From the IMG/VR virus record IMGVR_UViG_3300033070_001371, positions 1-64,000 of that record: a DNA stretch of 64,000 bases; one strand, given 5' to 3'. The stretch comes from a virus. Taxonomy: Duplodnaviria; Caudoviricetes. The stretch's first letter is position 1; each line of letters starts with the position of its first letter. The notes beneath the pieces are model-generated. The model was given only the letters and a program-made list of their open reading frames with translations, made no database searches and was not told the origin of the DNA. The position numbers and the translations under genes are program-made. This document shows, piece by piece, positions 42,393 through 63,495 of this stretch.

Positions 42393-43526
42393 CTAAACGT
42401 TCGTCTCGCCCTTTCGTCGGGCACGCTTCTCGATCTCAGCCCGACCTTGCTCGCAGTGCGCGGAGAACCCGCAGAAGCTGCACTGCCAGCCCGTCTCGGC
42501 CTTGGGCGCGCCAGTGTCGACGAGCCCGAGCTTGAGCGCGGTGCGGTTCAGAAACTGCCGCAGCCACGGGAACATCGTGCGAACGATCTCGTCGCGAGTC
42601 CATGCGCCCGGCTTGCCGTCGAAGCGCGGGAACCAGTCGACCTTCGGTTCGCCGATGTAGTGGATGCCGGACTGCACGCCCTGCACCCACGGGAAGTTCA
42701 CCAGTGCGAGCGCCATGTACGCGTAGAACTGCGTCGAGTGCTCGCCGATCGGCTTCTTCTTGCCCGACTTGTGGTCGAGCACGATCAGGAAGTCATCGCC
42801 AGTGCGCATCGCGTGATCGACAACACCGCGCAGTAACGGCTTCATCGCGATGCCGCCTTCGATCACGTCGTTCGGCGTGGCAGGCGAAACGGGTCCCGGC
42901 GCCTTGGGATCGGCGACCGGCGGAAACGCCGCGAGGCGCAGCGTCGAAGCGCCCACTTCGACAACCTCGAACGCGCCCTTGAGTGCGCCTTTCGGCACGA
43001 CGACGTAGGCGGCGCGAGCGGTGAGCCCGACGATGTCTTCGGGTGTCTGGTCGACCAACTCGACGAGGTCATCACCGAGCCAGCGCAGCTCTCCGTGCCA
43101 GATGTCTGGCGGAGTGTCCGCCGTGACCTTGAAGGGCACGGCTTCGTGCGTCGGCGAGATCGCGAGTTGGTGCTCGATGAACTCGTGGGTGACGCCGTTG
43201 TTCTCCTTGAAGACGGTGATCCGATCGAGGAAGTCCTGGATCGCCGACATCTTCGCAGAGCAGGTAATCAGCTCTTCACGAGCCAGTTCGTGGACTTCAC
43301 CCTGCTCACGCATCACAGCGTGCAGGTCAATGCCGGGCGTACGCAGCCCTGCCTCGATGACGGCGTGCGCGACGACGCCGACGCGAGAGGAGTCACTCTT
43401 CTTCCCCTCGATGAGCTTCTCCACGTACTTGTGAAGGTACTGCTTGCCGCAGAGGTTCAGCACGCCGACCTTGGAGACCGACCAAGGCGCGTGCTTCAAC
43501 ACGATCTCGTTGTACTCGTTCGCCAT
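42393..43526 (-). CDS. PD-(D/E)XK nuclease (RecB/Cas4-like) with an inserted beta domain
   Basis: WSVSK...C, GVVAH, RGVVD...LDHKSG, QFYAY, CSFCGFSAHC. Confidence 0.8.
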   Translation of the reverse strand: MANEYNEIVLKHAPWSVSKVGVLNLCGKQYLHKYVEKLIEGKKSDSSRVGVVAHAVIEAGLRTPGIDLHAVMREQGEVHELAREELITCSAKMSAIQDFLDRITVFKENNGVTHEFIEHQLAISPTHEAVPFKVTADTPPDIWHGELRWLGDDLVELVDQTPEDIVGLTARAAYVVVPKGALKGAFEVVEVGASTLRLAAFPPVADPKAPGPVSPATPNDVIEGGIAMKPLLRGVVDHAMRTGDDFLIVLDHKSGKKKPIGEHSTQFYAYMALALVNFPWVQGVQSGIHYIGEPKVDWFPRFDGKPGAWTRDEIVRTMFPWLRQFLNRTALKLGLVDTGAPKAETGWQCSFCGFSAHCEQGRAEIEKRARRKGETNV

Positions 43527-43623: not shown

Positions 43624-44802
43624 CTACAGGTTGTTCTTGCTGACGTCCTTCGTACCGCTCGGGCCCGTCGGAGCGGCAGCCGAAGCGCCCGCGTTCTTCA
43701 GCAGCGCGTCCATGTCAGACGCGCTCCCGGCGTTCGCGGAAACCTTGGGCTCCGTGGTGTAGATCGCGTACATTTGCGGCAGGTAGACCTCGTAGTCGAC
43801 CTGACGCACGAGCGCGTCCAGCAGCGCCTGTTCTTCCGCTGAAGGGTCGGCCACGTCCGTCGCGATCGACGCCGTGAGCTCGAACCAGCGGTCGGTGCCC
43901 AGCTTGGCCTCCTTGGCCTCCAGCTCGAAGGCGTGCTCGTAGTACGCCGTCCACGGGCGGGTCTTCTTCTTGATCGCAGCGGAGCCGGGTTTGATCGACT
44001 TGCCGTGAATCACGAAGCGGTACACGCCCGAGAAGTCCGAGAGAACGAAGTAGACGTGGTCCTCGTTGCGGCACGCGTCCTTGGTGTTCGGCTTGCCGTC
44101 CTTGAACGGACGGTGCGCGCACGCCTCGCACGAACCGAAGTAGTCGCCGCGCTTGCGATCGAGCGAGCGGCAGATCGGCATGTTCGAGCGCATCTCGACG
44201 CCCGCCGGGAGGTTGCCCGAGCGCGGCGGCCAGAACGTGTGCGCCTCGTGCACGCCGATCACGAAGCCCGTCACCGTGGTGCCGAGCTTGGCGTGCTTCG
44301 GGTTGTGCTTGAGGTTCGCGAGCGCGTCCTTCGGCGCCGCGAGGATACGGCCGTCGGTGGTGTAGATGCCGCCCTGCGGGCAGTCGCTGGGGCGAAGCTC
44401 ATCGGTGCCCGTGCCGTGGAACATGCGCATCTCAGGCAGGCGGAACTCCTGCCGCGTGGTGTGCTGTCCGGCCTTGACCGGATTCATCCGCGCGAGAGCG
44501 GCGGCGAACGCCGCGCGCTTCGCCTCGGACAAGTTGGCGAGCGCCGCCTGGATCTCGCCGGACTTGGGCGGCGCGACCTGCTCCACGTAGGCGGCCAACT
44601 GCGGCAGCGCCTCGCTGTAGCGCTTGGTCAGCGCGTGCGTCGGCACGTCGACGACGACCTCCGAAGAAGTGGTCGTCGCGAGCTCCGTCGAGGGGGCGGT
44701 CGGAGCCTCCGGCGTAGGAGCCGAAGCGGAAGCCGGCGTCGCAGGTGCGACGGCGGCGGGGTTCTGCGTGTTCTGCTTGTTCTGCTTGTTGTTGTTGGAC
44801 AC
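43624..44802 (-). CDS. Putative ssDNA-binding or annealing protein with a Cys4 motif
   Basis: GTG start with AAGGAG; CRSLD...SCEAC...AC motif; disordered termini; adjacent to the nuclease and primase. Confidence 0.55.
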   Translation of the reverse strand: MSNNNKQNKQNTQNPAAVAPATPASASAPTPEAPTAPSTELATTTSSEVVVDVPTHALTKRYSEALPQLAAYVEQVAPPKSGEIQAALANLSEAKRAAFAAALARMNPVKAGQHTTRQEFRLPEMRMFHGTGTDELRPSDCPQGGIYTTDGRILAAPKDALANLKHNPKHAKLGTTVTGFVIGVHEAHTFWPPRSGNLPAGVEMRSNMPICRSLDRKRGDYFGSCEACAHRPFKDGKPNTKDACRNEDHVYFVLSDFSGVYRFVIHGKSIKPGSAAIKKKTRPWTAYYEHAFELEAKEAKLGTDRWFELTASIATDVADPSAEEQALLDALVRQVDYEVYLPQMYAIYTTEPKVSANAGSASDMDALLKNAGASAAAPTGPSGTKDVSKNNL

Positions 44803-44892: not shown

Positions 44893-45717
44893 ATGGCTAA
44901 GACGAACAACCCGCTGCTAGACCTGCACTTCCGTGATGTCGGAACGCACCCGATTCGGTCGTCGAAAGAGGAGTACGATCTCTTTACGGCGTACCAAGAG
45001 GCGCGTACTCGCGCAGAGTTGTCGGCGAGTCCGAGCGAGCGGGAAAGGTTTCAAGCGAAGTGCGACAAGCTGCGCAACGAGATCGCGAGCGGCTACTACC
45101 GCTTCGTGATCAAACGCGCAAAACACAGGTCGCACGACGAAACGCTGTTCGCTGAGTTGATCTCCGCCGGCTACGAAGGGCTGCTCCATGCGATCACGCT
45201 GTTCGATCCCAAGCGCGGCAACCGCTTCCTGACGTACGCAGCGAGCTGGATCAACGTGAAGATGCAGGAAGCTACGTATCGCGTGCGTACGGTGCATGTG
45301 CCGAACCACACACGCAAAGAGATGCGACGCACGCGCGTTGAGAACGAGCGCAAACAAGCGCTCGGCGAGCACGTCGAACACTTCGAGGAACCGTCAATCG
45401 CGTCGATCGACAACGTAGTTATCGTCGACGAAAACATCGACGTCGAAGCCGATGTACAGCGCCAACGCGTTGACCCGCTGGCGCTGCTGGCGCAGGCGCA
45501 GCTGACGCGGGTCGAACGGTTGGTGCTGATCTACGCGTTTGGGCTGCGCGGTGGCGAACCTAAAGACGCGCGGACGATCGGGCAAATCCTGTACGAGATC
45601 GACGGCTCGCAGATGACGGAGCCGCGCGTAGAAGAAGTTCAGATCCGCGCCCTAGCACGCCTGCGAGCTCACCTCTCCGAAGAGGAGATCATGAGCTTCG
45701 CAGACGTGCTGGGGTGA
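44893..45717 (+). CDS. Phage sigma-70-family factor (RpoD/RpoH-like region 2)
   Basis: ELISAGYEGLLHAITLFDPKRGNRFLTYAASWI; region 4 LTRVERLVLIYAFGL...RALARLR. Confidence 0.88.
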   Translation: MAKTNNPLLDLHFRDVGTHPIRSSKEEYDLFTAYQEARTRAELSASPSERERFQAKCDKLRNEIASGYYRFVIKRAKHRSHDETLFAELISAGYEGLLHAITLFDPKRGNRFLTYAASWINVKMQEATYRVRTVHVPNHTRKEMRRTRVENERKQALGEHVEHFEEPSIASIDNVVIVDENIDVEADVQRQRVDPLALLAQAQLTRVERLVLIYAFGLRGGEPKDARTIGQILYEIDGSQMTEPRVEEVQIRALARLRAHLSEEEIMSFADVLG

Positions 45718-45722
45718 GTGGG

Positions 45723-46775
45723 CTACTCCTCGCCCTCGGGCAGCGCCGGCAGGTCGGCGAGCCCGGCGGCTTGGGCGAGGCCGTCGCGACGACCCTTCTC
45801 GTACGCCACGGTCTCCGGCTTGGCCTTGTCACTGGCCTTGAGCTTCGCGAAGCGCGCGTTCGAGAAGTTGTAAAAGGCCACGAGATCGGTCTTGCTGATG
45901 GGCTTGAGGTCCTTCGCCACGACCTCGTCGGGCAGCTTGACGGAGCGCCCGCCGGTCTTGGCGCTGCCCTTGCCCTTGTCGTCCGTGGCCTTCTGCTTGT
46001 TGAGCCACTTCTCGATCACGAACTTCAGGTACTTCGGCTCCATCTCTTCGTCGGTCGCCTGCTGCGCGAACGCGACCTGCATCTCCATGTCGGTCACGCG
46101 TCGAAGCTCGCGCACCACCGACGGTGCATAGCTCTTGAACGGCTCCTTGGCTCCCTCGCGGACCATCTTCTGGACGCGCTCGTCGAGCTTGCCGATCGCG
46201 AGCACCTGCGAGACGTTGCCCTCGGAGACCGAGAGCACTTCCTTGAGCTCAGACTGCTTGAGCCCGTTGGCCATCAAGTTCTGGAAGTAGGTGAACTTGT
46301 CCCAGAACGTCATCTGGTCGCGCTTGAGGTTCTCTTGGCCCGCGAGGACGAGGTACTCCTTGAGGTCCTTGATCTCCTTCGCCTTGCAAGTGATCTCCTT
46401 GAGCCCGGCCTGGATCGAGCCCTCGCGGCGGCGGCGCCCAGCAGCGATGAGCCAGACTTCTTTGCCGGTCTTCTTGTTGCGCGCGTAGGTCACGCACGGG
46501 TCCTGGATCAGGCCGTCCTTCTTGATCGACGCGACGAACTCCTCGTCGACCAAGGCCGGCGCCGAGCGTGCGTCGACCTTGCTCACCGCGATCTCCTTGG
46601 GGCTGATCTTGATGGAGCCAGTCGCCGCGACCTCGGCAGGCAGCGGCAGGAACTCGTACTCGAAACCGAGCGGGTTGGTCGCCCTCTCAGCGGCGGCGGC
46701 CGACCCGGACGGGTCGGACGACTTGGACTTGGCTTTCGCCTTGGGGGTGGTGTTCTCCGTGGTCTCCGTAGTCAT
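45723..46775 (-). CDS. parB: ParB/KorB-family CTPase DNA-binding protein
   Basis: SIKKDGLIQDP, IAAGRRRREG arginine patch, ENLKRDQMT, HTH (LKQSELKEVLSVSEGNVSQVL); ATG 46775 after AAGGAG. Confidence 0.85.
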   Translation of the reverse strand: MTTETTENTTPKAKAKSKSSDPSGSAAAAERATNPLGFEYEFLPLPAEVAATGSIKISPKEIAVSKVDARSAPALVDEEFVASIKKDGLIQDPCVTYARNKKTGKEVWLIAAGRRRREGSIQAGLKEITCKAKEIKDLKEYLVLAGQENLKRDQMTFWDKFTYFQNLMANGLKQSELKEVLSVSEGNVSQVLAIGKLDERVQKMVREGAKEPFKSYAPSVVRELRRVTDMEMQVAFAQQATDEEMEPKYLKFVIEKWLNKQKATDDKGKGSAKTGGRSVKLPDEVVAKDLKPISKTDLVAFYNFSNARFAKLKASDKAKPETVAYEKGRRDGLAQAAGLADLPALPEGEE

Positions 46776-47050
46776 CTTGGTCTCCTTGGTCTGTGGTCTC
46801 AGGGTCCTCGAATAGGACCAGCTCGCCGCGCAGGATCTTTCGGATCGCTGTGACGGCGACGCGCTTGTTGATGAGGGTGATCGGCAGCTCGCCGACCGCG
46901 CCACCTTCGAGAAGATGGCGGTAACACGCCCACAGCTCAACTGCAACAGCTACCTCAGCATGAGGCGACGTGAAGTAGGCTGTGAACAGGTAGTTGACGA
47001 CGCGCTGGTGATACCGGGCGTCGTAAAGGATGTGCGACTCAGTCGTCAGC
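46687..47050 (-). CDS. Possible small hypothetical protein; start unresolved
   Basis: A protein-like frame (SHILYDARYHQRVVNYLF...) fills the gap, but it overlaps the ParB start and has no clear ATG. Confidence 0.3.
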
Positions 47051-47237
47051 GCTCGAACGGCAACGTGCCGCAGTTCGGACACCGACGAGAGCGCGTCGCG
47101 GTTTCGAGAATTGGAACGTCGCACGTGGGACACCGTTCGAGGTTTGCCACGTCAGCCGTACGCCGTAAAGGCTTGGCTTCGATCTCTTCTACCGCGTCCG
47201 CGTCTAGATTCGTGACAACGCCGTACTTCTCACCCAT
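47046..47237 (-). CDS. Small Zn-ribbon protein (63 aa)
   Basis: MGEKYGV...CPTC...CPNCGTLPFE; GGAG Shine-Dalgarno. Confidence 0.65.
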   Translation of the reverse strand: MGEKYGVVTNLDADAVEEIEAKPLRRTADVANLERCPTCDVPILETATRSRRCPNCGTLPFER

Positions 47238-47416
47238 GGATACTTCTCCGTCAGGCAACCCGGACACGCGAGAAAGACGCGGCCGGTTGACGAAAAGCAC
47301 ACTAACCCCCAACCGCGCGCATCGCCAGGAGCTCGCGCGCCGCAGTCGGCGCACGTCAACTCAGGGTCAGGCAAGGAAGGAACGTTCGACAGTGGCGCGG
47401 CCGTCCGGTACGGCAC
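47204..47416 (-). CDS. Small Zn-finger protein (70 aa)
   Basis: CADC...CPGC; starts right after the nuclease stop. Confidence 0.45.
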   Translation of the reverse strand: MPYRTAAPLSNVPSLPDPELTCADCGARAPGDARGWGLVCFSSTGRVFLACPGCLTEKYPWVRSTALSRI

Positions 47417-47417: not shown

Positions 47418-48233
47418 TCAGTCGCGCCCCCGGCATTGACCGTAGTAATTGCACCACTTGGGTGTGCACTTCCACGAGTCGAACGACGCCATCAAAAAGA
47501 AGCCCTTCTTAATGGCGTCGACCGTTTGCTCATAGTCTTCGATCAAGTTGCGGTGCTCGCGCGCGCCGCGCGTAGTAGACAGCCGGTGCAACGCAGGAGT
47601 CTTGGTGTTGACGAGGTTGTCGATGCGCCCGTGAGGCAGGCGCTTGACGGCAGTGTAGAGCGAGAGCTGCGGATCGTTCTTGACGTCACCCTCAGACCAC
47701 TTCGCTGCCGAAGTCTTCAGATCAGCGACGACGAGGCGCCCCGGGTCTGCCGGTTCGCTCTTCTCCAGGTCGACGAGGTCGATCACACCGCGCACGGTGA
47801 CAGTGCCGACCTTCACGACGAACGGCTCTTCGATCTCGATAGGTGTGACTTTCGATAGCCCCTCCGCGTGGTAGACGCGGTAAAGCCGGAGAGCTACGTC
47901 CTTGACCTTGCCAGGTTCTTCGTCACCCCACGTCTCGACCGCCTCCTTAGCTTTGTCGAAGGCGTCGGCGGCGACGGCAAGCTGGACGTCGAGGGCGGGC
48001 GCTGCACCGTGCTGTTGTTTGTGGCGGAGCGCAGTCTCGACGGCCGCGTGGATCGCGGTGCCGCGCGCCATCTGGGGGCCCGGCGGCGTCCGCTGTTCCT
48101 TGATGTACTTGTACTCGTACGCCCGCCCGCAGCTCTTGTACGTCTCGTACTGCGAATGCGAGAACGCGCCGCCCGGCAGCCCGGAATCGACAAGCTCTGG
48201 CGGGATGACAGGTAGATAGCGTTTCTCGCTCAT
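47418..48233 (-). CDS. Second PD-(D/E)XK nuclease (RecB/Cas4-like)
   Basis: FSHSQ...C, GTAIH, RGVIDL...ADLKTS, QLSLY, CTPKWCNYYGQC. Confidence 0.82.
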   Translation of the reverse strand: MSEKRYLPVIPPELVDSGLPGGAFSHSQYETYKSCGRAYEYKYIKEQRTPPGPQMARGTAIHAAVETALRHKQQHGAAPALDVQLAVAADAFDKAKEAVETWGDEEPGKVKDVALRLYRVYHAEGLSKVTPIEIEEPFVVKVGTVTVRGVIDLVDLEKSEPADPGRLVVADLKTSAAKWSEGDVKNDPQLSLYTAVKRLPHGRIDNLVNTKTPALHRLSTTRGAREHRNLIEDYEQTVDAIKKGFFLMASFDSWKCTPKWCNYYGQCRGRD

Positions 48234-48931: not shown

Positions 48932-50976
48932 TACTCAATGACCTCCACGTCGGCGACGGGGCGCGCGACGTTCGCAGCGTACTTGCACTTCGCCCGAAAG
49001 GGGAGGATCTCGTCGCGCGCGCAGGTCGTTTGCCGGTCGCACCCCGCGCACGCAATCAGGTCAGTCAGGGTCAGCGTGATGCTCTCCTTGAAGAGCAGGA
49101 CCTGCGCGACGTAGCGATCGAGACCCCACGACGCGTCTGAGGTGAGCAGGCGGTAGACCGTCATCGCCCGGTGCTGGCCTGGGCGGTTGTTGCGGTCCTG
49201 TGCCTGCCGGTATTGGAGCGGGTCCCACGGCAGCGAGTAGAAGATCGTGTAATTCGCAGCTGTGAGCGTGATGCCGATGCCGGTGCTGACCTGCCCGATG
49301 TAGACACGGCACTTCGGGTTGTCCTGAAAACGGTCGATGCGCTTCTGGCGCGCGAGCGTCTGGCCATCGACGCGCACGTAGTCGATGCCGAGGGCCTTGG
49401 TCGCGGCTTCGAGGTCGTCGAGCTCCTCGGTCAGGTTCGCCCAGACGATGATCTTGTTGGTCTCGTCCGTCTCCAGGATCAGCGCGAGCTGCTCCTTGAA
49501 GAGGTCGAGCTTGGGGTTCTCGATGTCGCGCAGCACGCGGCGCTCAGGCGTCGACTGCACGACCTCACACTTCTTGGTGTACGGGCGGATCTTCGCCGCA
49601 ACGCACGCATCCATGCGCGGGCACGCGTCGCAGATCGAGTAGTCGGCGCCCTGGATCACGAAGCCAGAGAGGACCTGGAGCATCTTGTTGACGCGCGTCG
49701 CGCCGTGCGGGAGGCGCACAGACTGACGCTGCGCCGCGAACTCCTCGGTGACGCGCGACGGCTCGGCGTAGAGCAGCTCCGGCGTCACAGACATCGCCAT
49801 CTCCATAACGAGCTCGTTGTAGCGGGCACGCTGCGCGACGCCGAGGTCGAAGTGCAGGTCGACGGTCGTGACCGGTGGCAAGTCGAGGCAGTCGGCCTTC
49901 TTCATGCGGAGCGCAACGCTGCGGAAGCGCTCGTTGAGCTCGTTGAGGAAACGGAAGCCAACGACAACGTGCTTGTTCTTCGGCGAGTAGACGACGTGGT
50001 GCTCCTCGAACTTGTGGTACGGGAGCGGCACGAGCGCCGGGGAGAGGAAGTAGAGCTGGCCGTAGAGCTTGCGCGGGTCGTCGCCGGGCGTGCCGCTCAG
50101 GCAGTAGCGGCGCACGGCCTTGGCTGACAGCTCGATCGCGGCCTGGGTCTGCCCCGAGGCCCAGTTGCCGAGGTAGTGACTCTCGTCCGCGACGATCGTG
50201 TCGTAGTCGAGGTTATAGAGCGGGTGGGACGCCGCGCGACGTAGCCGCGCTTCGGCCTCAGCGGTGAGAGGCGCGAGCTTGTAGCGCTCGCGCTGCGCGG
50301 GGGTGATCGCGAGCTCGCGCTCGGCGTCTGTCGCAGCCTCGCGCTCCATGCGCACGCGGGTGTATGACGCAAGCACGACGTCGGCGGTCTGCGCCGCCGC
50401 CTCGGCCTCGGGCGTGCCATCCCAGATGACGGCATTCCACGCGCCGCGCGAACAACGTACGACCTCGCGGGCCCAGGACTCCAGCACGACGGGCGGCCCA
50501 AGGATGAGCGCCCGACGGAACGCGCCCTGCGCGCGAAGCACGCGAAAAGCGTCGATCGCAGTGCGCGTTTTCCCGGTGCCCATGTCCCAGTCGAGGAACG
50601 AGCGCCACCAGTGGACCAGTCTCGCAATTCCCAGACGCTGGTGGATGTACGGCGTAAAGCCAGGGGTGAAGAAGTCATCACCAACAGGAAGAGGTGCCGG
50701 CGCGCGGGCCGTCCACGCAGCTTCGGCGGCAGCCCAGGCTTTGTCGGCAGCACGGACAGCAGCCAGATGATCGCGCGCAGCGTCATCCCAAGGTGCCTGG
50801 GGCATGAGCTTGCGCAAGTCCTCGAAGACCCACTTCGCAAACGGGAAGTAGGCTGGAAACAGCCACGCGCTGTCAGCGTGCACGCCGCCCCACGCGCGTG
50901 CGAGGAACGACTGCTCGGAGGCGGCGACGCGAAACACAGGGATAGCCTTTCTGAGAAGGGTGCCCGTTACGAGCAT
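48931..50976 (-). CDS. SNF2-family helicase/translocase with two Cys4 motifs
   Basis: DMGTGKT, DESH, LSGTP, GIGITLT, QAQDRNNRPGQ; AAGGAG Shine-Dalgarno. Confidence 0.88.
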   Translation of the reverse strand: MLVTGTLLRKAIPVFRVAASEQSFLARAWGGVHADSAWLFPAYFPFAKWVFEDLRKLMPQAPWDDAARDHLAAVRAADKAWAAAEAAWTARAPAPLPVGDDFFTPGFTPYIHQRLGIARLVHWWRSFLDWDMGTGKTRTAIDAFRVLRAQGAFRRALILGPPVVLESWAREVVRCSRGAWNAVIWDGTPEAEAAAQTADVVLASYTRVRMEREAATDAERELAITPAQRERYKLAPLTAEAEARLRRAASHPLYNLDYDTIVADESHYLGNWASGQTQAAIELSAKAVRRYCLSGTPGDDPRKLYGQLYFLSPALVPLPYHKFEEHHVVYSPKNKHVVVGFRFLNELNERFRSVALRMKKADCLDLPPVTTVDLHFDLGVAQRARYNELVMEMAMSVTPELLYAEPSRVTEEFAAQRQSVRLPHGATRVNKMLQVLSGFVIQGADYSICDACPRMDACVAAKIRPYTKKCEVVQSTPERRVLRDIENPKLDLFKEQLALILETDETNKIIVWANLTEELDDLEAATKALGIDYVRVDGQTLARQKRIDRFQDNPKCRVYIGQVSTGIGITLTAANYTIFYSLPWDPLQYRQAQDRNNRPGQHRAMTVYRLLTSDASWGLDRYVAQVLLFKESITLTLTDLIACAGCDRQTTCARDEILPFRAKCKYAANVARPVADVEVIE

Positions 50977-51003
50977 GTGTTACTCCTTTCGGTTGGAGAC
51001 GAG

Positions 51004-52731
51004 ATGACCATCGACGGCGGAATCGGAATGGGCTTCGACGACACGCTGCTGGGCTTCGGCGGACGGCACGCGGCGTCGCATCCGAACCCGATGTTTGACT
51101 ACCTGACCGGGTTTGTGCCCCGAAAGCTGAAGGACCTGTTCAAGTGGGCAGAGTACCTCGGGTTCCACTCAGCGCACGTCTACGGCGTCGTTCGCAAATT
51201 CGGCGAGTACCCGATCACGCGCTTCATCTACGAGTCGAACTCGGAAGAGGAAAAGTCGCGCCACAAGAAGCTCTTCGAGGAAGACCTTCGGCTGAAGGGC
51301 TTCCTGACGCTGGTGAGCTACGACGTGTGGCTCTATGGCAACGCGTTCGTCTCGGTCTACGAGCCGATCAAGCGCGAATTGGTATGCCCGCACTGCGGAA
51401 CGAAGGAAGACGTCGCGGCTGCGACGTACAAGTTCAACCTCTCGAAACTCCAGTTCACGCACGACTGCAAGCAGTGCAAGCGCAAGGCAGTGGAATCGGC
51501 AGTCGAAGACTACAAGTTGAAGGATTCGACGAAGATCACGCTGATTCGGTGGGACCCGAAACTGATCGACATCGAGCACAATCGCGTCACGGGTGAAAGC
51601 GTCTACTACTACCAGATCCCGCGCGATGACGTGTCGAAGGTGCGGGCGGGCAACAAGACGTTCATCAACCACATGCCGATGGAGATCCTGCGCGCGATGC
51701 AGGAGCGCAAGACGTTCCGCTTCGGCGATGGGTCACTCTACCACCTCAAGATGCCTGGGCCAGCCGGGGTGCAGGCACAATGGGGCTTTCCGCCGATCAC
51801 GAGCGCGATCAAGAACTTCCTCTTCACCGCGGTGCTTCGTCGCGCAAACGAAGCCATCGCGTTGGAACACATTACGCCGTTCAGGATCATCCACCCGCTC
51901 GCGGCGAGCGGTCAGGGAGACCCGATCACGACCATCCCGCTCGATCGTTGGAAGACGGAGATGGAGCGAAACTGGCGGCTCTTCCGACGGGACCCGCTGC
52001 GCATCCAGTTCTCGCCGGTTCCTGTCGGTGTACAGAACGTCGGAGGCGAAGGTCGCGCGCTTCTCACGCTCGGCGAGCTTCAAGAAGCCGAGAAGTCAAT
52101 CGTGCTTTCGCTTGGCGTGCCGATGGAGTTCCTTGCGGGCGGCCTCGGACAGACGCGCGGCGAGATCACGCTCCGCATGATCGAGAACCAGCTCCAAACG
52201 CACATCGAGAACTTGAACTCACTCGTGCAGTGGGTCGAGCGCAAGGTCGCGCTGTTCATGGGGTGGCAGTCGATCAAGATGCGACTCGCGGACTTCAAGA
52301 TGATCGACGACGTCGAGAACAAACAGCTCAAGATTCAGCTGTGGCAGAGCCAACTGCTCTCGAACACGACGATGGCCGAGATGCTCGACATCGACCTCGA
52401 CCACGAGCGTAAGCAACGACGCGAGGACGCGCTCGCCGACGCGCGCGCCGAGCAGGAAACGCAGGTCGCACTCAAGAAGCTCCAGCAGTCGCTGTCAACG
52501 CAGGCGCAGAATCAGGCACTCCAGTCCCAGGGGGGCCTCGCGTACGACCAACAAGCAATCATCGCCAAGGCGCAGCCGATCGCCGAGGAGATGGCGCAGT
52601 ACGACGCAGGCACCAAGCGCTCGCGGCTTGACTCACTCAAGGGTGAAGACTTCATTATGTACTGCGTTACCAAGGAGCTGCTGGAGCAGATGCAGCAAGA
52701 CCAGATGGCATCAATGAAGGCGCAGGGCTGA
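51004..52731 (+). CDS. Portal protein with a Zn-ribbon insertion
   Basis: YGNAFV, IRWDPKLI, HLK...WGFPP, IVLSLGVPMEFL pattern; CPHC...CKQC insertion; start at 51004 or 51028. Confidence 0.72.
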   Translation: MTIDGGIGMGFDDTLLGFGGRHAASHPNPMFDYLTGFVPRKLKDLFKWAEYLGFHSAHVYGVVRKFGEYPITRFIYESNSEEEKSRHKKLFEEDLRLKGFLTLVSYDVWLYGNAFVSVYEPIKRELVCPHCGTKEDVAAATYKFNLSKLQFTHDCKQCKRKAVESAVEDYKLKDSTKITLIRWDPKLIDIEHNRVTGESVYYYQIPRDDVSKVRAGNKTFINHMPMEILRAMQERKTFRFGDGSLYHLKMPGPAGVQAQWGFPPITSAIKNFLFTAVLRRANEAIALEHITPFRIIHPLAASGQGDPITTIPLDRWKTEMERNWRLFRRDPLRIQFSPVPVGVQNVGGEGRALLTLGELQEAEKSIVLSLGVPMEFLAGGLGQTRGEITLRMIENQLQTHIENLNSLVQWVERKVALFMGWQSIKMRLADFKMIDDVENKQLKIQLWQSQLLSNTTMAEMLDIDLDHERKQRREDALADARAEQETQVALKKLQQSLSTQAQNQALQSQGGLAYDQQAIIAKAQPIAEEMAQYDAGTKRSRLDSLKGEDFIMYCVTKELLEQMQQDQMASMKAQG

Positions 52732-52732
52732 G

Positions 52733-53143
52733 ATGGAAGATTGGATGGAACGACAACGGGCCGCCCGCGAAGAAGCGCAGCGCGGACCGCGCTCGGGCTT
52801 CGCAGAGCCCGCCGAGGAGCGTCCCCGCCGAATGAAGGTCTTCCATGAGACCTACTCAATCTTCCGCCCATGGCAGGGCTGCCAGCGTTGCAAAAAGGCG
52901 ATCGAAGAGAACGACACGCTAGTGCCCGAAGAGGGTGACTACGTCTGCCCTCACACCCGTCACGCCGAGTACATCACGCTGATGAACCGATTGCGCAACG
53001 CGGACAACGCTGGGCCGTGGAAGCTCCAAGCGCGCGAGTTCTCGAACGACCGAGGCGAGATCTTCGTTACGATCGCGTGGGAAGAACCCGAAGAAGCGCA
53101 AAACGAAGCGCGAGCGCGCCCCCGAGGCGTGCCGCGTCTGTAG
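52733..53143 (+). CDS. Hypothetical protein (CxxC...CxH)
   Basis: Follows the portal gene by 1 nt. Confidence 0.6.
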   Translation: MEDWMERQRAAREEAQRGPRSGFAEPAEERPRRMKVFHETYSIFRPWQGCQRCKKAIEENDTLVPEEGDYVCPHTRHAEYITLMNRLRNADNAGPWKLQAREFSNDRGEIFVTIAWEEPEEAQNEARARPRGVPRL

Positions 53144-53167
53144 CGCGGCACGCCCCGAGGCGAGCGG

Positions 53168-53530
53168 TCATCTCTCCGGGACGAGCGTCAGACCAAGGGC
53201 CTTGAGCGCGGGTTCCGCCTCGGCGGTGTAGAGCGCGTACTTACCGTCGTAGTTGTACACGAAAATGGCGCAGCCGTGCCGCACGTTCACAAGGGCGTAG
53301 CCTTTGTTGAGTAGCGTACCCTGCGAATGCTCGCCCGGCGGCTCGGGCGCGCGCTGCGCGTACGGCGAGTAGTCCAAGAGCTGGATCACATCTTCTTCGG
53401 CGATCGTACTGAGGTACTGGGCGGGTGGCTTGAGGTCGTTGATGTATGTGCCGTGGCACTTGAACGTGAACATCAACGATGTCCTACAACGAAGATGACG
53501 AACCGGAAGACCGAACGGATCAACATGCAA
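53168..53530 (-). CDS. Hypothetical protein (start uncertain; possibly MFTFKC near 53473)
   Basis: The only plausible ORF in the gap; protein-like composition. Confidence 0.45.
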   Translation of the reverse strand: MHVDPFGLPVRHLRCRTSLMFTFKCHGTYINDLKPPAQYLSTIAEEDVIQLLDYSPYAQRAPEPPGEHSQGTLLNKGYALVNVRHGCAIFVYNYDGKYALYTAEAEPALKALGLTLVPER

Positions 53531-53584
53531 CTCTCCTTTGGCGAGCAGAAGGGCTCACCACGGGCTTTTACCGCGTACAGACGC

Positions 53585-53596
53585 TAGACTTCGCAT
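53585..53596 (+). promoter_or_regulatory. Putative -10 box (TAGACT) of the RNAP gene, with an adjacent TTTACCGCGT site
   Basis: TAGACT, then 6 nt, then GTG at 53597; the motif site is at 53567-53576. Confidence 0.55.
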
Positions 53597-56500
53597 GTGA
53601 TGAACGAGCTCACGCCTGTGCTCACCAGCGCGACCACGCTGCGCGAGAAGCTGCACAACAAGACGACCCAGGCCCTGACGGCCGCGTTCCCGCTCGACCT
53701 GAAGGGACGAACATTGGAAGTCAAGGACGTGCGTGTGCACGGGCAAGACTACGGACCAGCTGAAGAGTACGCGGCGATCACCAAGGGCTCATCGCTGTAC
53801 GAGCCGGTCAAGGGTACGCTCATCCTCAAGGATGCGCACGGCAAAGTCGTCGATGAAGCAAAGAACTTCACCCTCGTGCATGTACCGTTTCTGACGGCAC
53901 GCCACACCATCATCGCCGACGGCAACGAATATCAAGTCGCCAACCAGCTGCGACGCAAGCCGGGTGTATACACACAGCGCGCGGACAACGGCGAACTGAA
54001 GACCGTGTTCAACCTCGGACGAGGCAAGAACTTCGATCTTGCCTTCAACCCGGACAAGGGCACGTTCCACCTCCAGTACGGCACATCAAATCTGCCCCTT
54101 TACGCCGTATTGCGCGGCCTCGGTGTCGAGCACAACCAGATCGCCAAACACCTCGGAGAGGGTGTCGCCAAGGCCAACGAAGAAGAGCACGGACATCAGG
54201 TCGCGACCACCATCAGCAAACTCTATGCGAAGCTGGAACACCCTGCCGTCATGGACGCCAACGCGCCGCACGAAGCAAAGATCGAAGCCGTGCGCAAGCG
54301 CTACGACCAATCGACGCTGGACCCCGAAGTCACAACCGTGACGCTCGGGGCCCCTCACGCCAAGGTCACGCCCGACGCGCTGCTCGTGGCCGCCAAGAAG
54401 ATGCTCGACGTGCACGCAGGCAGGACGCCAGTCGACGACACCGACTCGCTGAAGTTCAAGACGTTCCACGCGCTAGACGACTTCGTCGCGGAGCGCATCC
54501 GTCTAACGGCGCGCCAGTGGGCACCCAAGGCCAAGATGGCGCTGACGGGCAAGACTGTGATCCGCGACGCGCTCAAGCCGGCGCCGTTCTCGGACTCGAT
54601 CCGAAAGTTCCTGACAACGTCCTCGCTCTCCAGCGTGCCCACCGGCATCAACCCGATGGAGATCATCGACCACGCCGTGAAGGTGACGAGCCTCGGCGAG
54701 GGTGGCATCCCATCGGACCGCGCGATCCCGATGGACGCACGCATGATCCACAACACGCACTTCGGCGCGCTCGACCCCATCCGCACGCCGGAGTCGAATC
54801 ACTCCGGCGTCGACATCCGCGCAACGATCGCCGCGCACCGCGACGACAAGGGCAACCTGTACACCGTTTTGCGCAACGTAAAGACCGGCAAAGACGAGTT
54901 TGTGCGCGCGGGCGATCTACACAAGTACGTCGTCGCGTTCCCGCACCTGGAGCTGAAGGGCACGGTCGACGCGTTCGTCGACGGCCACCAGACGCGCGTA
55001 CCGGCGTCGCGCGTGACGCACCAGCTCGGGCACGTCAAGCACCTCTACTCCCCGGCGACGTCGCTGATCCCGATGATCCACTCGATCCAGGGCAACCGCG
55101 CCATCATGGGGTCGAAGATGGGTACGCAGGCTCTGCCGCTTGTCGAGCGCGAGGCTCCGCTCGTCCAAGTCATGTCGCACCACCCTGACGGCCACTCGTT
55201 CGAGGCGATCTACGGGCACATGATCGTGCCGACCGCGCCGGTCGCAGGCACGGTGGCGAAGGTCGACGACCAGTTTGTGTACATCAAGCCGCACGCCGAG
55301 AAGCGGAGCGCAGCGGGCGACGCAGCCCTGGTCAAAGTGCCCTACTACGAAAAGTTCCCGTTTCCGTCGAAAACGTTTCTTGATCACGCCGTTGACGTGA
55401 AGGTCGGCGACAAGGTCGAAGAGGGTCAGCGCCTCGCGGAATCGAACTACACGCGCGACGGCGTGCTCGCGCTCGGCAAGAACCTGCGCGTCGGCTACCT
55501 GCCGTACTACGGGTACAACTCCAACGACGCGGTCGTGATCTCCGACGCGGCGTCGAAGAAGCTGACCAGCGAACACATGTACCGCGAGGTCTTCCCGCTC
55601 GGCACGGGCATCGAGCTGAACCGCGCGAAGCACCATCTCTACTACGGCGCGAAGTACCCCGCGCAGATGTACAGCAAGCTCGACGAGGGGGGCGTCATCA
55701 AGAAGGGCGCGAAGGTCGACCCGAAGGACCTGCTTGTCGCGGGCCTGATGAAGCAGGCCGTGACCGGCACCGACGCGATGCTCGGACGCCTCGGCAAGTC
55801 ACTCGTCAAGCCGTTCAAGGACATCGCGCTCGTGTGGGACCACGGCGTGCCAGGCGAAGTCGTGGACGTGGTGCGCGCGAGCGGCCAGATCACGATCCTC
55901 GTGAAGACGCGCGAGGCCATGCAGGTCGGCGACAAGCTCGCGGGCCGCTACGGCAACAAGGGCGTCGTCGCAAAGATCGTCCCGGACCACGAGATGCTGC
56001 GCGACGAGCAGGGGCACCCGCTCGACCTGCTGCTCACCTCGGCCGGCGTCGTCTCACGCATCAACCCGGCGCAGGTCATCGAGACGGCCGTGGCGAAAGT
56101 CGCGGACAAGACCGGCAAGCCGATCGTTTACGACAACGCAGCGGGGCATAACGCCGTAAAGTGGGCGCGCAATCTGATGCGCGAGCACGGCGTCAAGGAC
56201 AAGGAGGAGCTCTACGACCCGGTGCTCCAGCGCAAGGTCGTGGGCGCGGACGGCAAGGGCGTGCTCGTCGGCAAGCAGTACATCTACAAGCTGTTCAAGA
56301 GCACCGACACCAACTTCGCCGGGCACGGCGTCGGGCCGTACGACCTCAACGAGCAGCCACTCAAGACCGGCGGCGACGAGAGCGCCAAGGGCCTCGGCAA
56401 AATGGAGTTCGACGCGCTGCTCGCGCACAACGCACGCAACTTCCTGCGCGAGGCCGCGACGGTGCGCGGCCAGAAGAACGACGAGTACTGGAAGGCCGTG

Positions 56501-58144
56501 CAGACGGGGCTACCGCTGCCGGCGCCAAAGCCGTCGTTCGCGTTCAACAAGTTCCTCGGGCTGCTCGAAGGCTCAGGCGTCAAGGTCGACAAGCGCGGCT
56601 CAAAGTTCGCGCTCCTGCCGATGACCGACAAGGACGTGCTCGCGCGCAGCGCGGGCGCGATCGAGCACGGCGCGACGGTGCGCGCGAAAGACCTCAAGCC
56701 CGAGACCGGCGGCCTGTTCGACCCGCGCAAGACCGGCGGCACGCAGGGCACACTCTTCGCGCACATCGACCTGCACGAGCCGGTGCCGAACCCAGTGTTC
56801 GAGGAGCCGGTGCGGCGCCTGCTCGGCATGACCGAGACGAAGTTCAAGGAAGCGCTCCGCGAGCACGGCGGCACTTGGTTTCGTTCGGAGCTCGCGAAGA
56901 TCGACGTGCCGCGAAAGCTGCGCGAGCTGCGCGAGCAGCTCAAGAACGCCAAGGGCCCCGCGCTCAACGACGTGGTCAAGCAGATCAAGTACCTCGAAGC
57001 GCTTCAGGCCCACAAGCTCGGACCCGCCGAGGCGTACGTGATCAGCAAAGTGCCGGTCATCCCTCCGGTGTTCCGTCCAATTCAGCCCGGTGTGCGCGAC
57101 CCTTCGCAGCTGATGGTCGCCGACGCGAACAAGCTCTACGGCCAATTGTTCGACTCGAACAAAACGCTGAAGACGACGGCCGTCGCATCCGACTTGGGCA
57201 AGCACCGCCAGGACCTCTACGAAAAGATGGAGGAGCTGTACGGCACGACGCTGCCGCACGATCCCAAACTCCAGCAACAGAAGGTCAAGGGGCTGCTTGC
57301 ATCGGTAGCCGGTGTTGGCTCGCCGAAGGGTGGCTTCTTTCAGCGCAAGCTGATGCGCCGCACGCAGGACGTCTCGGGACGTGGCACCGCTGTGCCTGAC
57401 TCAAACCTTGGGATGGACGAGGTCGGCATCCCCGAGCCGATGTTGTGGCAATCGCTCGACAAGTTGATCGTCGCGCGCCTGATCCGCACCGGTTACCCCG
57501 CGCTTCAAGCGCGCGAGATGGTGAACGCGAAGGCGCCAGCCGCGCGCGACGCAATGCTCGCCGAGGTGCGAGACCGCCCAGCGATCATCAACCGGGCGCC
57601 GACGCTGCATCGAGGCTCGATCGTCGCCGCGTACGCCAAGCCCGTACCCGGCAAGACGATCCGCGTCTCGTCGTTCACCGAGAAGGGCATGAACCTGGAC
57701 TACGACGGGGACACCTTGCAAGTGCACTTCCCGATCGGCGCTGAGGCTGTCGAGGACGCCAAGAAGATGACGCTGAGTAACATGTTGCTCAGCGACCAGC
57801 AGCGGGACAAGCTGATGGTGTTCCCGCAGCACGAGGCGATCATCGCGTTCACGCTGGCAGCGAAGCACACGACGCCGACGGGTCCTGTACGGAAGTTCAA
57901 GACCCGTGAAGACGCGCTCGCAGCGTATCGGCGCGGAGAACTGAAACTCTCCGACGCCATCGAGATCGAGAACGAAAAGCGCGCCGAAGCCGAAGCGCTT
58001 GCAGACGGCTTCGGAATGGGCGCGGAGCTCGATGTACCGTTCTATCCCGTCGAGCCCGACGAAGCGCTATCCTACTTCCCGCCAGAGCTGCTCACGGGCG
58101 AAGGCGACGAGGACGAGGACCCCGATGTTCGACTTCTTGAATGA
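53597..58144 (+). CDS. Multisubunit RNA polymerase, beta fused to the N-terminal half of beta'
   Basis: Beta motifs QLRRKPGVY, DPIRTPE, NRAIMGSKMGTQA, GYNSNDA, GDKLAGRYGNKG, GKMEFDAL; beta' motifs KPETGGLFD, HIDL, PVIPPVFRP, SGRG, NRAPTLHR and the catalytic NLDYDGD. Confidence 0.93.
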   Translation: MMNELTPVLTSATTLREKLHNKTTQALTAAFPLDLKGRTLEVKDVRVHGQDYGPAEEYAAITKGSSLYEPVKGTLILKDAHGKVVDEAKNFTLVHVPFLTARHTIIADGNEYQVANQLRRKPGVYTQRADNGELKTVFNLGRGKNFDLAFNPDKGTFHLQYGTSNLPLYAVLRGLGVEHNQIAKHLGEGVAKANEEEHGHQVATTISKLYAKLEHPAVMDANAPHEAKIEAVRKRYDQSTLDPEVTTVTLGAPHAKVTPDALLVAAKKMLDVHAGRTPVDDTDSLKFKTFHALDDFVAERIRLTARQWAPKAKMALTGKTVIRDALKPAPFSDSIRKFLTTSSLSSVPTGINPMEIIDHAVKVTSLGEGGIPSDRAIPMDARMIHNTHFGALDPIRTPESNHSGVDIRATIAAHRDDKGNLYTVLRNVKTGKDEFVRAGDLHKYVVAFPHLELKGTVDAFVDGHQTRVPASRVTHQLGHVKHLYSPATSLIPMIHSIQGNRAIMGSKMGTQALPLVEREAPLVQVMSHHPDGHSFEAIYGHMIVPTAPVAGTVAKVDDQFVYIKPHAEKRSAAGDAALVKVPYYEKFPFPSKTFLDHAVDVKVGDKVEEGQRLAESNYTRDGVLALGKNLRVGYLPYYGYNSNDAVVISDAASKKLTSEHMYREVFPLGTGIELNRAKHHLYYGAKYPAQMYSKLDEGGVIKKGAKVDPKDLLVAGLMKQAVTGTDAMLGRLGKSLVKPFKDIALVWDHGVPGEVVDVVRASGQITILVKTREAMQVGDKLAGRYGNKGVVAKIVPDHEMLRDEQGHPLDLLLTSAGVVSRINPAQVIETAVAKVADKTGKPIVYDNAAGHNAVKWARNLMREHGVKDKEELYDPVLQRKVVGADGKGVLVGKQYIYKLFKSTDTNFAGHGVGPYDLNEQPLKTGGDESAKGLGKMEFDALLAHNARNFLREAATVRGQKNDEYWKAVQTGLPLPAPKPSFAFNKFLGLLEGSGVKVDKRGSKFALLPMTDKDVLARSAGAIEHGATVRAKDLKPETGGLFDPRKTGGTQGTLFAHIDLHEPVPNPVFEEPVRRLLGMTETKFKEALREHGGTWFRSELAKIDVPRKLRELREQLKNAKGPALNDVVKQIKYLEALQAHKLGPAEAYVISKVPVIPPVFRPIQPGVRDPSQLMVADANKLYGQLFDSNKTLKTTAVASDLGKHRQDLYEKMEELYGTTLPHDPKLQQQKVKGLLASVAGVGSPKGGFFQRKLMRRTQDVSGRGTAVPDSNLGMDEVGIPEPMLWQSLDKLIVARLIRTGYPALQAREMVNAKAPAARDAMLAEVRDRPAIINRAPTLHRGSIVAAYAKPVPGKTIRVSSFTEKGMNLDYDGDTLQVHFPIGAEAVEDAKKMTLSNMLLSDQQRDKLMVFPQHEAIIAFTLAAKHTTPTGPVRKFKTREDALAAYRRGELKLSDAIEIENEKRAEAEALADGFGMGAELDVPFYPVEPDEALSYFPPELLTGEGDEDEDPDVRLLE

Positions 58145-58610
58145 GTTGTTGGGCGCGCACGCTTCTGGCGCGCCCCCGAAAAGTGCGCCGTCCGGCAGCG
58201 AGCACGTAGCGTGTCTCCAGGCGATCCTCGCTAAGAAGTACGCGCTGCTGCTCGCCTACGTTTCGTACGGCGATCAGCTCCGGTCGATCTGCCGGGACGG
58301 CGTGTTCGAGCACTTTCAAGAGCACATCAAGGAAGAACGCGACGCCATCTACCAACTCAACAAGAAGATCACGGCGCTCGGCGGTGATGCTGTCGTATCT
58401 CCAGGCCATGTGCCTTCCGTGCCGCTCGACCAACCTCGCGCCGTGTTCGAGGCAGTGCTGAACTTGGAGCAGGCCGTCGTCGCGCTGTGGTCCGATTTGT
58501 TCCACAAGACCCCCGACGACGTGCCGCTCAACGCGATGGCGCAAGATGGTGCCCTCGTCGACCAGCAACACGCCGACGACATGCGGCGCTACCTTCGGAG
58601 TGAGTGCTGA
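58125..58610 (+). CDS. Ferritin-like four-helix protein (bacterioferritin/Dps fold, degenerate ferroxidase site)
   Basis: EHFQEHIKEE...KKITALGG, LNLEQ, DQQH; ATG 58125 after GAGGA. Confidence 0.65.
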   Translation: MFDFLNELLGAHASGAPPKSAPSGSEHVACLQAILAKKYALLLAYVSYGDQLRSICRDGVFEHFQEHIKEERDAIYQLNKKITALGGDAVVSPGHVPSVPLDQPRAVFEAVLNLEQAVVALWSDLFHKTPDDVPLNAMAQDGALVDQQHADDMRRYLRSEC

Positions 58611-58987
58611 TGCCGGACCTCAAGGACATCGCGCGCGGCGTAACGACCCGCCTCAAGAAGCGTCAGCGAGGTTTTCACTTCGACAAGGAGCCGGGTTTTT
58701 ACGGCGTAACAAAGAGCTTCGGCGACGCCGCCAAGCAGAAACTCGCCAGCGAAGCGCGCGCTCGTGCGATCCGCAAGGTCGCGGCGAAGTACGCGCTGCT
58801 TGACGAGTCGGGCGAACCTGTGGAAGCGCTCGCGAAGCTCTTTGCACAGAGTAACTTCGGTTACGGCGACGCGCCCGTCGCCCCGAAGCGTACCGGCGAC
58901 CCCCTCTGGGGCGCGTCGATGGGTATGCCGGCGGAGCCCGGCGACCGCAATGGGCTGAGCCGCAATCTCACGTACGGAGGAGTTTGA
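58610..58987 (+). CDS. Small putative head protein
   Basis: TGATG coupling; KLASEARARAIRKVAAKYAL. Confidence 0.55.
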   Translation: MPDLKDIARGVTTRLKKRQRGFHFDKEPGFYGVTKSFGDAAKQKLASEARARAIRKVAAKYALLDESGEPVEALAKLFAQSNFGYGDAPVAPKRTGDPLWGASMGMPAEPGDRNGLSRNLTYGGV

Positions 58988-59325
58988 TGATCACGAAGGA
59001 AGCGCTCGACGCCGCGCGGTCGCGCGGTGCACAGAAGATCTTGGCTCGCTACGGCCTCGACAAGGTCAGCGGAATCATGTCGACCCTCGGCAGCGCGGCT
59101 ACGCGCGCGCTCGGCGCCGGGACCAAGGCGTACCAGCACGGCGGCGGCAGCATGATGCAGAACGTCGGCAAGGGCATCGCGGCCGGAGCCAAGGGCTTCC
59201 AGCGTGCGGGCGGCGTGCCGGCGGCGGGCAAGGCGCTCGGCGTGGCCGCAGCGGGAGGGGCGGCAGCGTACGGCGCGGGACGCGCGTTCGGCGCCGGGCA
59301 GGCCGCGTCGCAGCAGCAGCAGTGA
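58987..59325 (+). CDS. Small Gly/Ala-rich putative internal head protein
   Basis: TKEALDAARSRGAQKILARYGLDKVS plus a glycine zipper. Confidence 0.6.
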   Translation: MITKEALDAARSRGAQKILARYGLDKVSGIMSTLGSAATRALGAGTKAYQHGGGSMMQNVGKGIAAGAKGFQRAGGVPAAGKALGVAAAGGAAAYGAGRAFGAGQAASQQQQ

Positions 59326-59345
59326 CACACGGGCGCGAGGCAGCG

Positions 59346-59357
59346 TAACCTTTCGCC
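59346..59357 (+). promoter_or_regulatory. Putative -10 box (TAACCT), leaderless
   Basis: TAACCT, then 6 nt, then ATG at 59358; no Shine-Dalgarno. Confidence 0.55.
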
Positions 59358-61157: not shown

Positions 61158-61779
61158 CTTCGCGGATCGACTGAACGCCGTAAAGACAGCGGCCCGGGCG
61201 CGCGTGCTCGGACGGTACGGGCTTAAGGACCTGTTCCGCGAGCACACCATCGCCCCGGCTGCGCCCGGTGTCACCAACAAGGCCAAAGCATTCGGCAAAC
61301 ACGTCGCAGAATTCGGACGCGAGGCTGTCTTCGGTAGTCCGATCACCGTCGCAAAGCAGCTCGCTGACCGCTACAAGCAAACCGGTAGCGTCGCCCGAGC
61401 GATGGGCGGCCACGCCAAAGACTTCTACCTCTCACCCGGATCGCCGACATGGCTGAAGGCCCTATCCCTCGGTATGCCCGCGATGGAGCTCGGTAACATC
61501 GCGCTGCGCGGCGACCCAGAGACTCGCAAGGGCGACATCGCACACGCGATCTCGGGCATGGCGGCTGCGCCGTTCACGGCGCGACTCGGCCTGCTCGGCA
61601 TCCCAGTCCAGGGCGCGGTACAGGGTGCCGCGCGCTACTTGGGGTCGAAGTTCGACCCGAAGCCTGCCCCAACACCCACGCCCGAAAATATCGAGCTGGA
61701 CGTACCGAAACACCTGATGCGCGCGTGGAAGAGCAACTCTCCGCTCGCGCTGAGCGACGACAACCCCGCTGCGACCTAG
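61147..61779 (+). CDS. Putative internal head protein
   Basis: GTG 61147 after GGAG (alternative 61111); VKTAARARVLGRYGLK; amphipathic Gly-rich C-terminus. Confidence 0.55.
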   Translation: MHSDFADRLNAVKTAARARVLGRYGLKDLFREHTIAPAAPGVTNKAKAFGKHVAEFGREAVFGSPITVAKQLADRYKQTGSVARAMGGHAKDFYLSPGSPTWLKALSLGMPAMELGNIALRGDPETRKGDIAHAISGMAAAPFTARLGLLGIPVQGAVQGAARYLGSKFDPKPAPTPTPENIELDVPKHLMRAWKSNSPLALSDDNPAAT

Positions 61780-61810
61780 ACTACGCACTGGAGCCAAGGA
61801 GCACCCCCCA

Positions 61811-63418: not shown

Positions 63419-63451
63419 TCGCCTCCGACTTGATAGTCTTGCGCTAGGTCA

Positions 63452-63495
63452 GAACGCCTGCTGCCGTATACTTCGGTAGCAGGCGTTCGCCTTTT
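63452..63495 (+). terminator. Hairpin with T-tract (intrinsic terminator or 5' UTR stem)
   Basis: GAACGCCTGCTGCCG-TATACTT-CGGTAGCAGGCGTTC followed by GCCTTTT. Confidence 0.6.

Follow-up and report, generated by a model that had tools for sequence, protein, structure and literature searches.

An orphan ParB-family protein as the candidate reader of an evenly spaced palindrome lattice in a family of large uncultured phages

The window, that is, the whole 64,000-nucleotide stretch of DNA that was analysed, covers positions 1 to 64,000 of an IMG/VR record 119,215 bp long (G000; ~69% complete; GC content, 63.5%) and carries an orphan ParB-family gene at 45723–46775 on the minus strand, which encodes 350 amino acids plus a stop codon and gives the single ParB_N match across the record. 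The MTTE start of this open reading frame (ORF) is kept in homologues (18-member clade alignment), and a longer TTG-initiated frame (to 46946) was rejected given that every homologue begins at MTTE. Pfam places ParB_N at residues 78–149 with 21.8 bits and also matches HTH_ParB with 18.9 bits, both below the curated cut-offs (26.3 and 22.6 bits, respectively); homologues carry precomputed PF02195/PF17762 matches, PHROG ParB-like families match the ORF at 4.5e-16 and Thermus Spo0J (1vz0) aligns with an E value of 7.5e-7, compared with only 0.37 for KorB (8qa8). In the Spo0J alignment, Box II (GRRRREG; GxxRxxA motif; 46419–46439, minus strand) lies over GERRYRA and Box III (ENLKR; 46320–46334, minus strand) lies over ENLQR. 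The CTP-pocket residues Q91, G113, R114, R116, E148, N149 and R152 are invariant in the 18-member clade; in the wider family, G113 and R116 remain invariant and R114 is invariant solely within the closer clade.

The AlphaFold2 (AF2) model of the protein (pLDDT, 78) comprises a disordered, Lys/Thr-rich N terminus, an N-terminal domain, a helix–turn–helix (HTH) domain, a disordered linker and two C-terminal helices. The N-terminal domain with the CTPase fold (approximately residues 40–150; 46326–46658, minus strand) is delimited by the Pfam ParB_N match, the strands and helices of the model and Foldseek matches to ParB–CDP/CTPgS structures; the HTH (46197–46256, minus strand; recognition helix ...SEGNVSQVLA) is supported by Pfam, the Spo0J alignment and family alignments. 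Foldseek ranks ParB–CDP/CTPgS, Noc and KorB at the top (E values of 1.8e-10 to 7e-8; TM to target up to 0.72), and its matches to the DNA-binding domains 6y93, 6s6h and 1r71 indicate that the central HTH domain is present. The helical C-terminal domain (residues 283–350; 45726–45929, minus strand; model helices 295–314 and 320–336) is predicted to homodimerize: its 68 residues score 0.63 compared with 0.08 for the best control, a mark reached by 20 of 30 solved one-chain pairs and 1 of 23 solved single chains, with at least 83% contact agreement between runs and a partner pLDDT of at least 74. This predicted homodimer lends some support to a putative clamp architecture, and the fold, a helical hairpin, differs from the known C-terminal domains of ParB and KorB. 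The N-domain with its GRRRR and ENLKR patches, the HTH and the helical C-terminal domain that the initial annotation had read from the letters are thus borne out by alignment, Pfam, AF2 and Foldseek, and the ORF is a genuine ParB of the Spo0J/Noc/KorB type. Only one of the 78 ORFs has a higher third-position GC content than this one (GC3, 0.923), which places it beside probable structural genes and suggests an abundant protein.

A sigma-70-family gene identified by Pfam and in relatives' loci (44893–45717, plus strand) is convergent with ParB, and the pair is syntenic throughout the phage family. The family locus order is RNA polymerase (RNAP), SNF2, PD-(D/E)XK nuclease, ParB, convergent sigma, putative single-stranded DNA-binding protein (SSB), PD-(D/E)XK nuclease, primase and PolA. 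The two nucleases (42393–43526 and 47418–48233, both minus strand) are Cas4/AddB-like with C-terminal Cys residues, and their bracketing of the ParB–sigma pair is syntenic over the whole family. Upstream of ParB lie two small ORFs conserved in the relative G003 (46687–47354, minus strand), of which one (148 amino acids; 46687–47133) overlaps the ParB start by 89 nt and the other (102 amino acids; 47046–47354) is a CxxC...CxxC Zn-ribbon ORF; neither matches a Pfam family, and it is possible that they are KorA-like partners of ParB. Between the first nuclease and the sigma gene, a conserved 392-residue protein (43624–44802, minus strand; GC3, 0.91) shows an invariant Cys cluster in alignment, and its AF2 model weakly matches RB69 gp32, RPA OB folds and the PhiC31 recombination directionality factor (RDF; E values of 1e-3 or weaker). 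This model makes it a probable SSB of the phage that pairs with the nuclease at 42393–43526; given its weak resemblance to ssDNA-binding OB/Zn proteins, it was set aside as a rival site-specific reader. A second sigma-like protein is encoded at 14514–15212 (plus strand; Pfam Sigma70_r3, 4.6e-7), so the phage encodes at least two sigma-family factors beside its own RNAP.

No ParA partner accompanies the gene. The absence of parA beside ParB noted in the initial annotation extends to the rest of the 119-kb record and to a complete relative of 172,374 bp with direct terminal repeats (G008): searches for PF13614/AAA_31 and PF01656/CbiA-type ParA found none in these two or in the relatives G002, G006 and G007, and a PF13614 search alone found none in G003. 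The LG[KR]GL ParA-binding motif (as defined in PMC12704722) is likewise absent from the protein, the N terminus of which reads ...PLGFEYEF.... At the position canonical for that motif lies a conserved peptide, LGFEYEFLPLP (46640–46670; ParB residues ~36–46), which may be a docking peptide for a partner other than ParA. A genome search found no tyrosine integrase, and the gene content (multisubunit RNAP, PolA, ribonucleotide reductase (RNR), thymidine kinase and terminase) is, as judged from annotation, that of a virulent large phage. A megablast search of 12 kb against GenBank phages returned no match. On synteny and gene content, then, ParB is a core gene of the replication and transcription module in a ~170-kb uncultured phage family that has its own multisubunit RNAP.

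The same genome carries a dispersed short motif. An unbiased k-mer count is headed by TTTACGGCGT (29 copies) and TTTACGCCGT (14 copies), and from these top words the consensus is a degenerate palindrome, TTTACG-S-CGTAAA, usually with one poor arm. TTTACGGCGTAAA, the word that the initial annotation had taken for the exact site, does not occur as such in the window or in the 119-kb genome. With a lattice site defined as at most two mismatches to TTTACG-S-CGTAAA, the 119 kb contain 0, 13 and 38 sites at 0, 1 and 2 mismatches (51 in total), compared with 0/0/0 for the reversed word, a control applied to fixed words only and invalid for palindrome counts since a reversed palindrome is still a palindrome. 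Most sites have a single good arm (TTTACGGCGTACA is a natural example) and none is a perfect palindrome, which is atypical for a parS-type loading site. The window holds 25 of the 51. One of them lies inside the sigma gene (44983–44995; TTTACGGCGTACC; two mismatches) and is kept at the orthologous place in G008; another (47157–47169; CGTACGCCGTAAA; two mismatches) lies ~380 bp upstream of the ParB start, within the Zn-ribbon ORF. By word search, 15 further sites with at most two mismatches span 3002–43598 (starts at 3002, 5986, 10327, 11695, 15094, 15891, 18157, 20398, 22649, 28549, 32841, 35162, 38475, 41245 and 43586) and 8 more span 50646–63789 (starts at 50646, 53567, 54099, 56148, 58698, 60001, 61172 and 63777), the one at 50646 being kept in G002, G008 and G003. 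Four sites near ParB had been proposed previously: those at 44983 and 47157 (given as 47160) stand, whereas the one at 44854 (TTTACCCTGTGAC) has four mismatches and the one at 47018 is only a half-site with five mismatches to the 13-mer. With sites 2.3 kb apart on average, any gene would be expected to have some on its flanks. Within sites there is a mild asymmetry, as the better arm tends to accompany a central G (TTTACGG), and the orientation of the better arm comes in regional runs that switch near 45–47 kb (15891–44983 compared with 47157–79549); in G008 the centre bias is present and a clear bipartite orientation pattern is absent.

The sites are spaced more evenly than chance would produce. 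Gaps in G000 average 2,316 bp (range, 532–5,900 bp), with a coefficient of variation (CV) of 0.46 compared with 0.97 for random placement, and none of 5,000 simulations was as even; spacing is similarly even in G007 (CV, 0.52) and G008 (86 sites; CV, 0.57). Every base pair is within approximately 3 kb of a lattice site, and typically within approximately 0.6 kb. Sites occur in all frames and in both orientations relative to genes, and ~70% of them are intragenic, with a 2–3-fold enrichment in the small non-coding fraction. Between G000 and G002, 12 of 26 site 13-mers are identical, whereas the background 13-mers of the same aligned codons are identical in 1.3% of cases (that is, conservation ~36-fold over the coding background); between G000 and G008, the figures are 5 of 26 and 2.6%. 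Positions are conserved for 12 of 29 sites with G008 and for 2 of 10 with G003, and density persists. Such conservation, together with positional turnover at a kept density, indicates that the sites are selected and turn over under a spacing constraint. The grid seen by the initial annotation is therefore real, evenly spaced and under selection at the DNA level (51 sites compared with 0 in the control), and the maintenance of density and evenness through turnover over 44–68% GC would make it an unusually clear case of selection on spacing. The suggestion that the lattice has no function and simply arises from base composition, codon usage or protein motifs, for which high genome GC content speaks and nothing further, is practically refuted by sites in different frames and both orientations, the zero count of the reversed control, the retention of sites in the 49% GC relative and spacing far more even than chance. 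Two further readings were rejected: a sigma promoter with a −35-like TTTACG (there is no conserved downstream element, sites are mostly intragenic and in both orientations, and relatives carry palindromes) and an oriented Chi- or primase-like signal (the sites are palindromic).

Relatives connect the gene and the lattice. Querying IMG/VR with a conserved protein from the neighbourhood gave ~230 relatives, among which 55 fetched loci cover the ParB slot; a ParB homologue occupies it in all 55, with the same synteny, in keeping with the co-occurrence that a reader of the grid would show. No relative was found with the lattice and without ParB. Relatives ranging in GC content from 44 to 68% retain the motif, and this persistence indicates that its reader is probably phage-encoded. 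Motif variants go with ParB subfamilies: TTTACG-S-CGTAAA accompanies the helix S-E/D-G-x-V-S-Q; TTCACG-N-CGTGAA accompanies S-N/D-A/S, as in locus L088, which has nine near-perfect copies 1.2–2.9 kb apart; and RRTACG-N-CGTAYY accompanies a third subfamily. The clade with a QSWVSYH helix has zero perfect TTYAC-N3-GTRAA sites in 137 kb. Tabulated raw and with classes defined post hoc, helix class and motif are concordant in 45 cases and discordant in 10; under phylogenetic control, the sign test is not significant, with just four to five independent contrasts. Covariation and co-occurrence are both confounded by shared descent. Two ParB-bearing relatives stand apart: L089 has no ACGNCGT-core sites in ~20 kb, although the looser word TTYAC-N3-GT is modestly over-represented there (16 compared with ~6 expected), and G009, in which Box III is lost, shows no clear lattice in ~20 kb. 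De novo searches for an alternative lattice word in G009, L089 and the ‘YGFRRY’ clade, all of which have ParB but not the motif, gave low-density candidates (CCAT-S-ATGG and TACGCGTA), none of them convincing, and also surfaced coding Gly-rich repeats. An IMG/VR search for CGAAATCGATTTCG, a word connected with an unrelated phage, returned only scattered single matches. Words are also strongly over-represented in G007 (GGCTACGGC; L055–L059) and L089 (GGCGAGGGC; 184–1436); the latter was rejected as a binding-site lattice, being a Gly-rich tandem coding repeat, and the former is assumed to be repeat-derived as well.

Taken together, these observations make ParB the best-supported candidate for the reader of the lattice, on circumstantial grounds of sequence and analogy, and we put the probability of this reading at roughly 60%. 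The architecture of the motif matches the KorB operator, and the KorB analogy drawn in the initial annotation holds. The TTCAC/GTGAA arms of the relatives’ motif equal half-sites of the established parS consensus. Each relative that covers the slot has a ParB, and motif variants follow the ParB subfamilies. Among the 37 other conserved proteins that were scanned, Pfam identified no other site-specific binder of the HTH type apart from the second sigma-like factor.

A reader of some unrecognized family is nevertheless conceivable, because approximately half of the conserved proteins have no recognizable family. Under this alternative, another phage protein reads the lattice and ParB has a narrower role, such as that of an NTP-dependent accessory factor or of a transcription regulator that works at a few sites together with the neighbouring sigma factor. 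It would accommodate the ParB-bearing relatives without an ACGNCGT-core lattice and the loss of significance of the covariation under phylogenetic control, and phage ParB-fold proteins with non-segregation roles do exist (PMC13229309, PMC12704722). We consider it unlikely, if still the rival to be taken most seriously, given that the motif has the layout of a ParB-family operator (PMC13768133), that palindromy implies a dimeric reader of double-stranded DNA and ParB is the sole one recognized in the genome, and that ParB is found wherever its slot is covered. The palindromes might instead be signals unrelated to ParB-type binding, for instance for site-specific modification or nicking of DNA, for replication priming, for packaging or as recombination hotspots. 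Two PD-(D/E)XK nucleases, an SNF2 helicase and a primase–polymerase module do surround the locus, and the mild arm and centre asymmetry (TTTACGG) with its regional orientation runs would suit such a signal. However, the near-perfect palindromes of G003 and L088 are unfit for strand-specific Chi or primase sites, a PF12851 search of G000 found no Tet/JBP dioxygenase, one 13-bp site per 2 kb is too sparse for anti-restriction modification and a 6-bp stem with a 1-nt loop is unable to form a hairpin; we regard this explanation as improbable. That ParB is the conventional centromere binder of a plasmid-prophage, similar to SopB of N15 and working with a host motor, appears more doubtful still, to the point of being very improbable. 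Phage-plasmids with Sop/Par systems and several centromere sites are indeed known (N15; PMC7205306), but the complete relative G008 has no ParA, the protein lacks the ParA-binding motif, no integrase was found, the genes carried (own RNAP, PolA, RNR and thymidine kinase) are those of a large virulent phage and the 51–86 sites are spread evenly rather than clustered. More generally, a role for ParB in segregation is unlikely, because ParA, the ParA-binding motif and lysogeny genes are missing and the sites are evenly distributed along the genome.

ParB–CTP clamps are known as centromere binders (ParABS), as a guard of the division site (Noc) and as long-range regulators (KorB on a plasmid and BisD on an integrative and conjugative element (ICE)), and the phage ParB as candidate lattice reader can be compared with each. 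KorB of the IncP-1 plasmid RK2 offers the closest operator: its OB site, TTTAGC(G/C)GCTAAA, occurs 12 times on the 60-kb plasmid (PMC13768133), and KorB–CTP clamps load there and act on promoters up to 1.5 kb away (PMC11790492). Both motifs are 13-bp palindromes with a central G/C and TTTA...TAAA arms (TTTAGC-S-GCTAAA compared with TTTACG-S-CGTAAA), and in both cases a ParB-family protein, in the phage a predicted CTP clamp, goes with many such palindromes dispersed over its own replicon (here 51 per 119 kb). However, KorB works with the ParA protein IncC and is locked as a clamp by KorA and TrbA, whereas here there is no ParA; KorB sites are near promoters and unevenly spaced, whereas those of the phage are ~2.2-fold denser, ~70% intragenic and regular; the element here is a phage of the virulent type; and the phage protein is nearer in sequence to Spo0J/Noc (E 7.5e-7) than to KorB (E 0.37). 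Noc of Bacillus, with its NBS sites, is likewise an orphan ParB paralogue with many scattered palindromic sites; it spreads in a CTP-dependent manner and matches the phage model structurally (TM 0.69–0.70); unlike the phage protein, with its disordered, Lys/Thr-rich N terminus, Noc tethers DNA to the membrane by an N-terminal amphipathic helix, and it has ~70 sites per 4 Mb rather than one per 2.3 kb. BisD of ICEclc, which loads at bisS, is a ParB-like CTP clamp on a mobile element with no segregation role, and slides over ~50 kb of the ICE to activate promoters (PMC12409273), but it loads at two sites and lacks a lattice, and it has an additional activator domain and BisC as a partner.

Other systems are more distant. 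SopB of the phage-plasmid N15 is a phage-encoded ParB-family protein with several palindromic genome sites (IR1–4; PMC7205306), but N15 also encodes SopA, has just four such sites and lives as a plasmid-prophage. ParB of Pseudomonas aeruginosa binds many half-parS sites with one good arm in the manner of a nucleoid-associated protein (PMC5961200, PMC10419367), but it is a chromosomal ParABS protein and its half-sites are neither evenly spaced nor maintained as a lattice. Phage ParB activators associated with 5mYOX lack a DNA-binding domain and need a neighbouring Tet/JBP dioxygenase (PMC13229309); assignment of the phage ParB to this type was rejected given its HTH and the lack of a PF12851 match in G000. 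Mobile elements and phages commonly encode orphan ParBs (PMC12704722). By analogy, we would file the phage ParB and its lattice with the KorB/Noc/BisD kind. The view that such a system had not been described for a phage fits our full-text literature searches, which returned no account of a phage with a lattice of this kind or with an orphan ParB that acts on its whole genome.

If ParB reads the lattice, we envision that its dimers, joined by the C-terminal helical domain, would recognize the 13-bp TTTACG-S-CGTAAA through the HTH, bind CTP, close into a clamp and slide ~1 kb to either side. With sites every ~2.3 kb, even within genes, clamps could then reach all of the phage chromosome and no other DNA. 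That clamps would cover the entire chromosome can reasonably be inferred, because every base pair lies near a lattice site, and a coating of the genome matched to the sliding distance, as the initial annotation suggested, would follow by analogy with KorB and its reach of up to 1.5 kb. The purpose would be control or marking on a genome-wide scale, similar to that of KorB or BisD, in the form of transcription by the phage RNAP and sigma factor, condensation or self-recognition; of these, transcription control or the marking of phage DNA is the most likely, given that a sigma-family gene and the phage RNAP always accompany ParB. We tentatively propose, as a possible scenario to which we give somewhat less than even odds, that a virulent ~170-kb phage family keeps an even lattice of loading sites, even in essential genes, by which an orphan ParB–CTP clamp covers and marks the chromosome as ‘self-chromatin’. 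Such a state, if true, could direct the phage RNAP and sigma factor, shield the DNA from nucleases or condense it, and the lattice word, in its variants TTTACG, TTCACG and RRTACG, would evolve in step with the specificity of the clamp. It would also be a new use of the clamp, in which a phage family of the lytic type tiles its genome with loading sites at intervals near the known sliding range. The natural motif variants are ready-made material for specificity swaps, and the system can be tested with one protein and short oligonucleotides.

Several minor observations concern the genomes themselves. G000 and G002 are close relatives (ParB, 77% identical; TerL, 82–86% identical), yet their GC contents (63.5% and 49%) differ by 14 points, and across the members of the family GC content ranges from 44 to 69%, an unusually fast compositional divergence. 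A ferritin-like protein is encoded between the RNAP genes (57999–58610, plus strand), and elsewhere in G000 lie a thymidine kinase and an InPase-like protein (90911–91486 and 92783–93565, respectively). In two relatives, L084 (1–2571) and L087 (1–4731), the RNAP beta/beta′ genes match LAGLIDADG_3 and have enlarged products of 2,015 and 2,290 amino acids, respectively, which suggests that the RNAP of these relatives contains inteins.
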